Numbered from the stretch's first letter, positions 10,131-56,069 are shown. The stretch is 64,000 nucleotides of DNA from Euglena gracilis (GCA_039621445.1 CP154954.1:43999847-44063846); one strand, 5' to 3'. Translations and numbers: made by a program. Notes: generated from the letters alone by a model not told the origin.

Positions 10131-12221
10131 GGCGGCCCAAACGAAGCCGGGTTTAACGTCGATGTCTGAGAAGAGGAAGGCGGGATGGATGGGGGGTGGG
10201 GAGGGAGGGTTTTGAACTGGCTCCCAGGCAACAGCGTAGCACAGGATGCAAAACTGACGGTGTTGCATTTCTTTAATGTCCGGTTCCCCAGAGCCAAATC
10301 TCTCTGATTCCCAGAACGTGGAGAGGCAGGACCAAAGTGGTTCAAAAGCACCCCCCCCCCCACAGAGGGTGGGAGGCATGGATACTTGCTGAGGACCCCA
10401 GCAATGATTACATTGATTTGCGGACGACAACATTTCTGCATTCCTGGGATTGTTTCACTCTGAGAATGCTGGATTTCCAGGCTGACTCTCCGGCTGGGTG
10501 TTGTGGAAACAAGGCAGAAACAAAGGGGAATGGCCCCACAAAAACGAAGCAGGAAATTGTCGCACAGAGGCCTAACTTAGGAGGCATAAACTGCCCATGA
10601 TAAAATTGACTGAAGTGCCACCCAAAACGCCAGAAAAATACCGCAAAAAAGAGCCAAAATTCTCGAGTAACGCATCAGATTGAAAAATTTACACCCATTT
10701 TGGCTGCAGAACTAATGAAGCGGAAAACCGCTTCATTGATTTCCGAAATTTAATTTTTACCAGAATTACAGGTAAACGGGATCCAGCAGAAAAATGATGA
10801 AAAAGATACTAAAATCACAACCAACGAACGATGACCCACGTCCGTAAGACACAGAGGTGGGGAAACTGAATATATACGTAGCAATAACTGCATGTAAGGA
10901 AGACAGCCGCATACGAAAGAAAAAAACGGAAAATCTATAATGAAGCGTAATAACGCTTCATCGACACCCACAGCCGTGATATTCCGCGGCGTGTAACCGT
11001 TTCAGATGCAGCAGTATCGCATGCACTTTTAGGACACGCCTGATAAAAAGGAGGAGAGACCACGTGATCCACTCTGCCTTGGTGTCGGTTCTTCCTGTGG
11101 GCTGCCGGGGCCGCAAGCGGCGGAAGCAGGCACCCGGCAGCCCCGTGGCTCCCCGCCTTGCACTGACTGAGACAGAACGTTTTTCGGCTTAAACTGCATA
11201 CGGAGCGAACATATGACATTCGCGGTGCAGGTTACGGTTAAGTGGTTGTATTATACGCGCAACACATGCGTAGGTCCAGTTAAAAGCAGTAACTGAACAC
11301 GAAGGAAGCGGTTTTACGCTTTCTTTGCACATAATTGACAAAATTTCACAAAAAGGGGAGAGACTGGACCGGGTCCAATTCACCTCCCCGGACCCCTGAA
11401 CGGTGCCCGGCCGTCAGGGGTTCGGTTACGGCTTTTGCTGGACCAGGCAGGCGATCGTACAGCCCAGGCTCCCCACCCAAGGCGGCACACAAAAGTTACC
11501 TAGCATACGATGTGTCTTGTGAAATGAACTTCATGGTTCAATCAGACGTTAAACGGTTAACAGCATCGCGCACCGCATTGAAACCTTTTGTGGCGGGCCT
11601 CAGAATGAAGTGGTTGATTACACAGGAAGCGGTTTTACGCTTCATTTTAAGAATGTTCAATGTCACTCGCGAGGTACTTAACTGTTTACCGGTTGCATGT
11701 ACCATCAACAGCATAACAGTACTACAGTTAGTATCCACCTTGAAGAATGCGGTTAATGCGGTGGACTGAAGCCAAGACTGGTTCGCTGCTACTCGTTGTG
11801 CGAATACCTCATCGATCAGTACGTCACTTGAGCTGCGTTCATCGAGTCCGTGAGAAGTCCTCTGCAGACATGACCTTGACGGAGTTTTTATGTGGAGAGT
11901 CTGCAACAGGACGATTTTATTTCCCCAACAAATGAAAATGAAGCGGAAAACCGCTTCGCCTACAACTGGAATCGCGATGATGTCTGGTCATACCGAGTTT
12001 GTGACCACAAACTACTGAACAGTCCAATCCTCACGCATTTAGGTGTTTTAACTGAACGTGGTCTGTGGGCTGCCGCTGGCAATGGCCAGCAAAGGCCGTA
12101 TGTGGCGGGGACTGCCCACCCCCTCCACGTACTGTCTGTGGTTCCCTACCAGTGACAGCCTCCTTTTTGCTATCTCTGGAGTGAGCGGAAATCCGCTTCC
12201 TTCACACGTACCGCGACGTGT

Positions 12222-12508
12222 GGGTAGCGACTGTGATCACGCAGGCAGTCGTCTTCGTCAGCACAGAACATGTCTTTACTTTGGTGATCGACATTACTTT
12301 GGTGTTTGTTCTCTGGGGAGCTGCGGAGTAACATTGGCGTGGACAACTGCAGAAACACAGAAGACGCTTCTATACCGAGATCAAGATACTACATACAACC
12401 GCGACTGTTTGCGTTTCATTGCTGAGTCCGCAGGGTTGAGTAGTGACTGTGATCACCGCAGGCAGTCAAGCATACGTGGGTAGTGACTGTGATCACGCAG
12501 GCAGTCGT
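12222..12508 (+). repeat. Three ~30-bp direct repeats GGGTAG(C/T)GACTGTGATCACGCAGGCAGTC upstream of the transposase gene
   Basis: Copies at about 12222, 12439 and 12478. Homologous copies in element B at about 26272, 26430 and 26468. Confidence 0.8.
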
Positions 12509-12990
12509 ACTGAAAAAAACACGCAGTTATTTCAAATTGCGCCAGACTGGGAAGCGTTTTTGCGCTTCATAACAGAAAAGCCAGAAAAAATGCTAAAATC
12601 CAACCCTACATTTCTAAATCGCGAGGTTTCTAACCGACGTAAACTGGCAGTTGTACCACCAACCACATCAATTCATCACAAGTTCCCAGGTAATCGTGTT
12701 TTGGGAAGGATTTTACCTGACATCGCGCTCTGGATGCGCCCAATTTGAGTGAACAACGTCCTGTTGCACCCCCCGTTTCAAAATCAAAATACCCTTACGA
12801 AATAGCACCAGAAAAATACCACTACAGTACGTATGAAGCGTAAAACCGCTTCATATGTAACATTAAACGTAAATTTACGAAACATATTGTATTTGATGTT
12901 ATATAAACATGAGATCATACAAGGAAGCGGTTTTCCGCTTCCTGTCGTATCAGAATACAAACAGTATCTGTCCATTGAAACAGAGAACAC

Positions 12991-54100: not shown

Positions 54101-54184
54101 CACTGCGCTGTCGATGAGCGTGTGGCGGTGGCTGGTGGACCGGTCGAAGCCCGTGTAGCTGGGGTGGTGGGAATGGGTCGGCAT
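30197..54184 (-). CDS. ppa: Three-domain soluble inorganic pyrophosphatase (family I) with C-terminal coiled coil, paralogue 2; about 14 exons
   Basis: ATG at 54184, stop at 30197. Approximate exons: 54184-54037, 43252-43124, 41511-41412, 41194-41122, 40712-40560 (domain 1); 39555-39380 (linker); 39190-38998, 37820-37682, 37130-36935 (domain 2); 36495-36372, 34030-33945, 32905-32724, 30846-30720 (domain 3); 30330-30197 ([21 protein letters not shown]...LEKKVG*). Signatures are DGDPIDV, DGDPLDI and DGNPMDV. Confidence 0.9.
32960..33190. repeat. (TG)n/(TGCG)n microsatellite in a PPase intron
   Basis: Directly visible. Confidence 0.95.
34667..36270. mobile_element. Non-autonomous hAT-like element in a PPase-2 intron
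   Basis: 11-bp TIR caagcacctat / ataggtgcttg. 8-bp TSD cccccgac (34659-34666, 36271-36278). Subterminal tandem 10-mers ttttaggcca near both ends. Confidence 0.85.
39875..40346. mobile_element. MITE-like insertion specific to paralogue 2
   Basis: Inverted ends cccccccaggcaattg / caactgcccggggggg. Internal ggggtgacaatt repeats. Absent at the paralogous position near 1760. Confidence 0.65.
41577..42460. repeat. Expanded (TCTGTG)n/(TG)n microsatellite, about 880 bp
   Basis: Directly visible. The paralogous site (3095-3118) has only about 25 bp of TG repeat. Confidence 0.95.
42711..43078. mobile_element. TA-flanked MITE (AACCCCCC...GGGTT)
   Basis: Imperfect TIR. TA duplication inside aggta|ttc. 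Absent from paralogue 1. Confidence 0.7.
43808..43847 (+). repeat. Interstitial telomere-like repeat (CCCTAA/CCCCAA)n
   Basis: About 6-7 units adjoining the Helitron-like unit. Confidence 0.85.
43848..45215 (-). mobile_element. Non-autonomous Helitron-like unit 1
   Basis: On the minus strand it starts TC and ends CTGG (CTRR). Asymmetric subterminal IR gctgagctctt/aagagctcagc, hairpins near both ends, no TSD. Joined head-to-tail with unit 2. Confidence 0.65.
45275..45675. repeat. GC-rich (GGCCC/GGCCCGGC)n tandem array; also at 43890-44078
   Basis: Directly visible; almost entirely G+C. Confidence 0.9.
45676..46416. repeat. About 18-bp palindromic minisatellite GGCCATCAT(T/G)GGTCATGAT
   Basis: About 40 units. 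Resumes at 51911-51940 after element D. Confidence 0.92.
46417..51910. mobile_element. Element 'D': 5.5-kb CTTAG-TIR, 5-bp-TSD transposon with no recognisable ORF
   Basis: 25-bp TIR cttagacggcgctacagggtatgat / atcataccctgttgcgccgtctaag (1 mismatch). TSD atgat (46412-46416, 51911-51915). Interrupts the minisatellite. Confidence 0.88.
52779..52872 (+). repeat. Interstitial telomere-like repeat (CCCTAA)n, degenerate
   Basis: About 15 units adjoining the end of Helitron-like unit 2. Confidence 0.9.
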
Positions 54185-56069
54185 GGCGGGGGCCTGGTTA
54201 GCCTGAGGGGGAGGGAGGACTGAGGGTCAGAAGGGGGGGGGGGGCAAGCCGGCAGCCACCCACACCACACCCCCGGATGCGGTGCAGGGGCGGGGGGAGA
54301 CTCACTGAGTGCGCATGCAACCGTCTCCACGCCACCAGACGGCAAGTGCCTGTGTGCGAATGTGGTGCCCGCTATTCATATCTGCTTTCTGGGTTTCCGG
54401 TGAAAAAGAAACACCACATCACAGCAATGGGTGTAGGCCAGCACACCACATTCATGAATGCAGGTGTAGTCCTCCCACCCCCAATCCCGCACCACAAACA
54501 GACGCATTTCCCCCAACAAATAGACCCATTGCTGTATCTAGCAACAAAAAGGCCTATTGCTTATAAATCTGCGGGTGGGCACAAGCCATACTGGGCCACG
54601 CTGGGCAAACAGAAAAAGTGGCGGCCAGAACCTCGCCTCGTGCTCGCCCACGCACCTTGCACACACAAACTTGCACCCACACACGCCCATATATTCATAT
54701 CTTCCTGTTGCACCTGCATTGCAGTTAGAGAAGCAAGTCCGAAGCACAACCCCAACTGGTTCATCCACGGGTGACACTTCATTGGGACTTCATTGGCAAA
54801 AAAAAGGCAAAGCAACACACAAGAACGTTTGGTGGTTCAGTTTCTGGGTTAGTGCACCAGAGCGACAGAGTGAGGGCTGTTCAAAGCATAAATACACCAG
54901 GAGAGGCCCACAGACCTGGCAAGGTTTGGAGAAATTCACCGTGTACTCCACCAGTGGAGCACACCATTTGGGGGGGGGGGGCAAATGTGATCACTGATGC
55001 ATGAAGTTTTGGCCCCTTATCCCAAAATGGCAATTTTGGTGCCGAAGGGCTGTTTTTTCCCAAAAAGGAGCAAAAGAGTGATAATTCCCATCTACCTGCA
55101 TCAGAAAAAGTGAAATCCACCACTGACGTTCATCATATAGAAAGAGGGAGGAAGTTGCAAAATGACTCAGCAATCTCTGAGAATATCCCCCCCCTTGCGG
55201 AACTGTCCGGGAGGTTGCTGACAGACAGCCAGAAATGCTTTTCTGAGTGATCACTGGGGAGGAGGCAAGCTCAAAGGCTTGCTGAAAAGAAATGCTGTGT
55301 TCCCCTTCATAAATCCCTGTGAATGGAAGCCCCCCCCATTTTTGACCATTGGACAAATGGAAGCCCCCCCCATTTGGGACACAGGAAAATGAAGGGGGGA
55401 AACCTCCAAACAGAAGCCCCGCCCCTCCGTTTTCGACCAAGGGTTCAAATAGAAGCCCAGGGGGGAAGGAACTGGGTCAGGCACCCCCCAAATCGAAGCA
55501 ACGTCAAAATTAGTGCAAAAAAAAGCCCCAGAAGGGGCAGGACAGCGCGATTTCCCAAAGCGATCTGGAAACAGCAAACTCATATCCGGTCAAAGGGGAT
55601 TCTTCGACTGTTCTTTTCCCAAAATGAAAATAATGACGACTCAACATGCTATTTGGCGAATTTGGCCCTGTGGGAGAGGCAACGGTGGTTCCTTCAAAAC
55701 ACACCCATGCTTATAAACCCCGTCCCAAACATGGGACCCCTCTGGCTTAGGCGGCGCGAATTGCCCAAGCAATTTTTGCGTTTTTTTTGACGTTTTTTGG
55801 CTGTTTTAAAAACACCCAAAAGGGCACGAAATTTTAGGTTGAGAGGGGTGTGTGGCAGCTTTGAGCAAAAATTTAATGAAAGTGGTTTTGCGCGGTATTC
55901 CACACAACGTACACTACATGATGCAGAGGTACGTAAAAACAGGGGTGTTGACACCCCTGTTACAGGTACCAGAAAAGTACTGTATTGTAACGTGTGTAAT
56001 ACGTGGGTGTATATTGGTGGTACGTCTGTTTCCACACAGTGTGTGAGGTGAGGTGAACAACGCAGGTGT

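Follow-up and report, generated by a model that had tools for sequence, protein, structure and literature searches.

CTTAG-ended transposons in Euglena gracilis: a probable cut-and-paste DDE lineage and a possible new superfamily

To which lineage do DNA transposons belong that begin with CTTAG, duplicate five bases of their target and fit no superfamily at first sight? The question is posed by a stretch of 64,000 nucleotides from Euglena gracilis (GCA_039621445.1 CP154954.1:43999847-44063846; hereafter the window), in which a first-pass annotation, made from the sequence alone, had described four such elements, A to D, as one family of presumably high copy number. We find five elements, A to E, which together cover ~31.4 kb of the window by coordinate sum. 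Their ends, their target-site duplications (TSDs) and the enzyme encoded by two of them point, with good probability, to a eukaryotic cut-and-paste lineage that has a DDE (Asp-Asp-Glu) transposase and stands outside the named superfamilies testable here.

The terminal motif is strongly over-represented. CTTAGNNGGC occurs 10 times in the window against 1.31 expected, and CTTAGRMGGC 8 times against 0.15 expected; none of 100 shuffles reached either count. Eight of the ten CTTAGNNGGC matches are element ends (both ends of A, B and D, the left end of C and the right end of E), and the remaining two are internal, one at 25862-25871 in an unrelated element nested in B and the other at 26112-26121 within B. 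All nine ends that could be read carry the tip CTTAG(G/A)NGGC(G/A) at their extreme terminus, with a single mismatch at the left end of E, which reads CTTTGG. For A, B and D this confirms the narrower consensus proposed earlier, CTTAG(G/A)(C/A)GGC with its reverse complement, and the common left end and TCTGG flank proposed for C are likewise present (TCTGG at 55741-55745, the element starting at 55746). All four annotated elements are thus real terminal-inverted-repeat (TIR) transposons; the fifth, E, lay outside the annotated region and had been overlooked, and was found by following a one-mismatch match to the motif.

Element A (10576-21739, + strand, 11164 bp) is of autonomous type and decayed, with TIRs that match perfectly over 22 of 22 positions (10576-10597 and 21718-21739) and the TSD CCTAA at 10571-10575 and 21740-21744. 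Element B (24295-28993, + strand) is a non-autonomous relative of A from which the coding middle is missing; its TIRs of 22 and 23 bp differ by one indel (24295-24317 and 28972-28993), its TSD is AAAGA (24290-24294 and 28994-28998), and its right end is at 28993, not at the internal match ending at 25871. Two further non-autonomous elements have no assigned strand: D (46417-51910, 5494 bp), which sits inside a 19-bp minisatellite and has TIRs matching at 24 of 25 positions (46417-46441 and 51886-51910) and the TSD ATGAT (46412-46416 and 51911-51915), and E (3393-5178, 1786 bp), with TIRs matching at 29 of 32 positions (3393-3424 and 5147-5178) and the TSD GTATT (3388-3392 and 5179-5183). Element C (55746-64000, + strand), again of autonomous type, has its left TIR from 55746 and continues beyond the window end.

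All four complete elements are therefore flanked by perfect 5-bp repeats, each of which has an arithmetical chance of 1/1024, and the four sequences differ, bearing out the expectation of a 5-bp TSD with no fixed target sequence. The TSDs of E and D have independent confirmation. The region around E is duplicated and diverged, 3-3390 and 5180-5581 corresponding to 38071-42710 and 43079-43481 at 74-92% identity; in the paralogous segment (42660-43140) the flanks of E lie ~370 bp apart, E is absent and the duplicated bases occur once. For D, the minisatellite regains its 19-bp phase across the junction when the element and one ATGAT are taken out, and keeping both copies breaks it. Contigs from other runs that match A break off exactly at 10575/10576 and continue into two different flanks, indicating that the A boundary is exact and that the family is present at other loci. 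The elements thus combine TIRs of 22-32 bp, a TSD of fixed length and one element-free paralogous site, as expected of DDE cut-and-paste TIR transposons. We also observed that the ~370 bp in the paralogue (42711-43078) is itself an insertion, bounded by inverted ends and situated only a few bases from the point at which E inserted in the other copy; that the segmental repeat is present in two to three partial copies, with a further pair at 5569-6852 and 53821-54611; and that the minisatellite split by D (45658-46416 and 51911-51940) comprises ~40 units of CATCATGGGTCATGATGGC.

Both autonomous-type elements carry a transposase gene on the + strand. In A it is a pseudogene (12991-15891) in blocks at ~12991-13569, 13813-14269 and 14788-15891, separated by intron-like spacers; in C it spans 58597-61727 (blocks 58597-59175, 59534-60185 and 60561-61727). 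Taken in order, the open reading frame (ORF) pieces of A and C align over the whole length of uninterrupted proteins from public assemblies that have 756-771 amino acids (P0001, P0002 and P0004), and we take the stop-containing spacers to be introns. A retains the D, D and E motifs, and the conserved family motifs are found in both copies apart from the WH motif region of A, which is mutated and frame-shifted past 14269; other copies in DNA runs read through correctly from 14270. When all 190 family proteins were compared with the window by tblastn, matches fell only in A (12955-15888) and C (58528-61686), and no transposase remnant was detected in E.

The protein family is large: among 1.84 billion representatives, 892 clusters match at E ≤ 1e-3, a number that falls to 499 at 1e-10 and to 170 at 1e-30. 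In an alignment of 41 sequences, D160, D306, R252/P254/D256/R259 and W341/H342 are invariant (P0001 numbering), and E511, E512 and E515 are at least 90% conserved. None of the 41 members matches a Pfam transposase family at E ≤ 0.1 (hmmscan), nor do the ORF pieces from the window, and neither a single protein nor the 41-sequence profile finds a PDB chain at E ≤ 10. Alignment-based, word-indexed protein searching returned 38 matches, none with a Pfam domain or informative name, and a cluster look-up of 10 members likewise gave no informative names. No relatives were found in viral contigs or in 185,579 prokaryote genomes, each searched with one peptide pattern.

An AlphaFold2 model built from the 41-sequence alignment has a predicted local distance difference test score (pLDDT) of 84.5 and a predicted template modelling score (pTM) of 0.76. 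It shows, in order, three strands (155-164, 178-187 and 268-273), a helix, a fourth strand (303-305), a second helix and a fifth strand (336-338), then helices over 340-509 and a further helix from 512. In this predicted structure D160 lies on strand 1, D306 just past strand 4 and E512 on the last helix, which is preceded by an all-helical insertion domain of ~150 amino acids; we infer from the model that D160, D306 and E512 are the acidic triad and propose them as the catalytic residues. Foldseek placed the Hermes and P element transposases at the top, weakly (best E 3.2e-3), and the first 34 entries of both structure-match lists are transposases, integrases or RAG, with aligned identities of 8-12% to the solved transposases and RAG chains. 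An insertion-domain DDE architecture is common to P, hAT, Transib/RAG1 and IS256/Mutator enzymes. Model and ranking together argue for a DDE enzyme with a large insertion domain whose nearest neighbours are P and hAT (8-10% identity).

The alternative that survives best is that A to E form a very divergent branch of a named superfamily (P, hAT or its hAT5 group, MuDR/IS256-like, Kolobok or Transib), perhaps one already held in Repbase or Dfam, both of which lie outside our comparison; we consider this a serious possibility, if a minority one. The sequence searches tell against it. The PDB set in which the 41-sequence profile found no chain presumably includes Hermes, the P element transposase, HzTransib and RAG1, the Pfam families matched by none of the 41 members cover hAT, P, MULE, KDZ and RAG1, and aligned identity to the solved transposases and RAG chains is only 8-12%. 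P elements have 7-8-bp TSDs, a THAP domain and a GTP-binding insertion domain, whereas the TSD here is 5 bp in four of four elements and neither domain was found; the P transposase (PDB 6p5a) aligns at 9% identity without a sequence match, and no P or THAP9 Pfam match occurs among the 41 members. The termini of hAT elements read YARNG, unlike CTTAG, and the hAT motif C/D-x-x-H is replaced in this family by G-x-W-H, with glycine, not C or D, at -3 from H342. No hAT dimerisation or BED match was obtained among the 41 members (E ≤ 0.1), and the profile did not find Hermes at E ≤ 10.

A TSD of 5 bp has been reported for Transib, the hAT5 group and some Ginger2 elements; hAT TSDs are described as 8 bp, and as 5-7 bp in the hAT5, hAT6 and hAT7 groups, so that the length seen here equals that of hAT5 and differs from typical hAT. 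The CMCT/Transib signature consists of C(2)C plus H(3-4)H, CA..TG termini and a TSD of 2-5 bp (PMC12730594). Our 5-bp TSD agrees with it, but the termini do not (CTTAG..CTAAG, all nine ends starting CTTAG or CTTTG), and no C(2)C is conserved in the 41 sequences. The spacing H342-x3-H346 is invariant in 8 sequences, and position 346 falls below 90% conservation in the 41. By fold, Transib/RAG1 ranks below P, hAT and IS256. Academ elements (AcademX and AcademH), which we compared by description, resemble ours as eukaryotic DDE TIR transposons with more than one coding region; their TSDs are 3-4 or 9-10 bp and they encode a nuclease or helicase (PMC10045372), whereas the TSD here is 5 bp and the scanned ORFs hold no XPG or helicase domain. 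Transib and Academ had both been named as misfits at the outset, and the missing domains and the lower fold rank agree with that judgement. The range of 4-10 bp given for TSDs of IS256/MuDR relatives (PMC10045372) would accommodate our elements and speaks for the named-superfamily alternative; against it, fewer residues align with ISCth4 (212-222), and there is no MULE or Transposase_mut Pfam match. Ginger2/IS3EU elements, with 4-6-bp TSDs, have an integrase-like core without a large insertion domain, which the enzyme here possesses.

A second alternative, which we rate only a little lower and regard as a lead, is that the protein belongs to the family of the fungal domain DUF6589 (PF20231) and that the elements are a non-fungal branch of a broader, unnamed group. 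It is prompted by a protein language-model atlas in which all 30 nearest clusters are DUF6589, mostly from Basidiomycota (best value 0.93, 196 of 256 shared features). The atlas recognition value is low (1521), however, and atlas resemblance comes without an alignment or E-value; no PF20231 match was found in the 41 members (hmmscan, E ≤ 0.1) or in P0001-P0003 at E ≤ 1. Nor did we find in the literature any link between DUF6589 and a transposon; a preprint lists it with Tet-like oxygenases as enriched in pathogenic fungi.

The five elements are not the single family of the first-pass annotation. A and B are 71-80% identical in DNA at either end and across several internal blocks, B lacking the 12.5-19.8 kb middle of A; C matches A at the DNA level only in coding blocks (67-78%), its transposase blocks having 43-60% protein identity on the + strand; and D and E resemble A, B and C, in DNA or protein, over no more than the first ~11 bases. 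This pattern implies at least three families that have in common the tip CTTAG(G/A)NGGC(G/A). A conserved tip with a divergent inner TIR is known from other superfamilies such as CACTA. That D and E were moved by another enzyme, or share the 11-base terminus and 5-bp stagger by convergence, is improbable: they have no similarity to A, B and C beyond the terminus and the window holds no D/E-type transposase, but the tip is present in all nine ends (with the one mismatch in E) and TSD length is equal in four of four elements. As a side observation, the best-kept inner block of A and B (19823-20094 and 26822-27073, 80% identity) encodes a lysine/glutamate-rich, low-complexity stretch and was retained in B although that element is non-autonomous.

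In the mechanism that we propose for the CTTAG elements, A-type and C-type elements would encode a DDE transposase of ~750 amino acids that binds inverted terminal repeats starting CTTAG(G/A)NGGC(G/A), cuts the element out and attaches its 3' ends to the target DNA at positions staggered by 5 bp; repair of the stagger would leave the 5-bp duplication. A and C would be decayed autonomous copies and B a relative of A that has suffered an internal deletion, whereas D and E would be non-autonomous members of other families, presumably mobilised by related enzymes encoded elsewhere.

Several observations weigh against this account. There is no intact autonomous copy in the window: beyond 14269 the invariant tryptophan of the A gene is gone, a stop occurs at 14288-14290 and the frame changes, and C changes frame near 60095-60105 and again between 61319 and 61594. 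Neither an excision footprint nor an insertion polymorphism was seen, and ~5% of one RNA run (X22) gave almost no reads on A. What links D and E to the enzyme is limited to ~11 terminal bases and TSD length. Four related metagenome contigs (L001-L004), which at 2.7-4.0 kb may stop short of the element ends, contain neither CTTAGNNGGC nor a second gene, and the generality of the terminus across the protein family is therefore provisional. Finally, our comparison of superfamilies was confined to Pfam, the PDB and the literature.

A literature search found no element described with CTTAG termini and a 5-bp TSD; the Tisochrysis papers describe other families. The earlier impression that the elements fit no superfamily therefore holds for Pfam, PDB sequences and the literature, and is provisional as regards Repbase and Dfam. 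Set apart in this way, the lineage has a nearly even chance of being a new superfamily, a status that we accordingly treat as provisional.

A further feature marks the coding lineages. The window holds 21 exact matches to the palindrome GAAGCG-N3-6-CGCTTC, where 0.01 would be expected, 19 of them in A (10717-21688, no strand assigned, 15-18 nt each) and 2 in B, where four copies, two of them variants, lie at 24437-28942. In A, 141 nt separate the first palindrome from the left end and the last finishes 51 nt from the right end; the first and last copies of B lie at matching distances from its ends. C has a palindrome of its own, GTGCGG-N4-CCG(C/T)(A/G)C, a pattern picked post hoc, of which all five window matches fall within C (56070-61406). 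Three of the four metagenome contigs (L001, L003 and L004, from two lineages) each carry five copies of their own palindrome, shuffles giving at most 2. In both metagenome lineages one palindrome falls within a variable linker that belongs to the insertion domain (near P0001 residues 400-420), where the window copies are interrupted by a palindrome-bearing spacer; in all, three lineages have a copy at this linker or intron of the transposase gene.

We propose, from sequence, that the palindromes are candidate internal sites bound by a protein of the element itself, be it the transposase or the conserved second protein. To our knowledge, such dispersed internal sites are not known from other cut-and-paste elements. 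The joint proposition is one of an undescribed superfamily, common in environmental eukaryote sequence to judge by the 892 clusters, that would be defined by its CTTAG termini, by a stagger of 5 bp and by an enzyme as far from P as from hAT, and in which the palindromes serve as internal binding sites; we put it forward tentatively and rate it somewhat below an even chance. Contig 'joints' beside the palindromes were also considered as hairpin deletion breakpoints and rejected as alignment artefacts, because one side of each is only 20-27 letters long, about the size of a palindrome.

A and C also have a second coding region on the + strand. In A it extends over 16520-19005 (blocks 16520-16810, 16814-17128, 16891-17322 and 17377-17688, and an ORF at 18322-19005) and is frame-shifted; that of C (62422-63846) is homologous to A 16520-17688, with 42-72% amino-acid identity over blocks of 18-87 residues. 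The region has no Pfam, NCBIfam or PDB sequence match and no homologue among longer proteins. Its motif G-K-[WF]-V-I-L-S-G-Q-H-R gave a ParB/DGQHR-like impression, which we dropped on finding no support.

Copies of A appear to be numerous. In one DNA run (X1), 1429 of 3192 contig pieces match A at 99% identity or more, and contigs inside A have depths of 612-1752 against 68.9 for a flank contig, a ratio of 9-25x in that run, depth not being the same as copy number. This suggests some ten or more near-identical A copies and a recent amplification, and is consistent with the high copy number anticipated for the elements: related copies look multi-copy. Of the 58 reads recovered from the sampled part of the RNA run, nearly all fall on a host exon beside A. 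This expressed exon (21639-21980) is just right of A, and 47 RNA reads continue elsewhere past 21980, suggesting a splice donor at that position; its expression places A in or beside a transcribed gene.

The element nested in B (25342-26068, 727 bp, no strand assigned) is a TIR element with a TA duplication and is unrelated to B; A represents the site without it. It includes a fragment resembling the Tc1/mariner DDE_3 domain (E 6e-6, below the Pfam cut-off). A lone CTTAGGCGGCG at 25861-25871, part of a 12-base match to the B and C terminus (25860-25871) that has no partner, looks like chance. Elsewhere in the window, GC-rich hairpin repeats of ~40 bp, TTGGTTGGGCCGCGGC...GCCGCGGCCCAACCAAA, are clustered at 43510-43818 and 53503-53793 and possibly represent a further small family of repeats. 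Microsatellites, long and either (TG)n-rich or (GGCCCGGC)n-like, occupy 9213-9651, 23189-24265, 41458-42430, 43870-44099 and 45291-45600; together with the intron-split genes, microsatellites point to a eukaryotic host. An ORF at 33907-34701 (- strand) contains a fragment of an inorganic pyrophosphatase domain (E 1.4e-9), the sole host-type Pfam match among 10 ORFs, and neither an Rfam family nor a match to a dinoflagellate spliced-leader motif was detected in the window.

A new superfamily among the DNA transposons of eukaryotes is reported only occasionally, and Repbase counted 23 in 2022, according to PMC10045372. If confirmed, the lineage described here would supply repeat annotation with a new signature of terminus and TSD. 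Such elements make up about half of the window, where annotation would otherwise label them 'unknown' or mistake them for genes, and hundreds of unannotated protein clusters in public assemblies would gain a name. Should the dispersed palindromes prove to be binding sites, they would represent an architectural feature new to transposons. Confirmation would also provide a DDE enzyme between P and hAT with which to study how insertion-domain transposases and RAG1 diversified.

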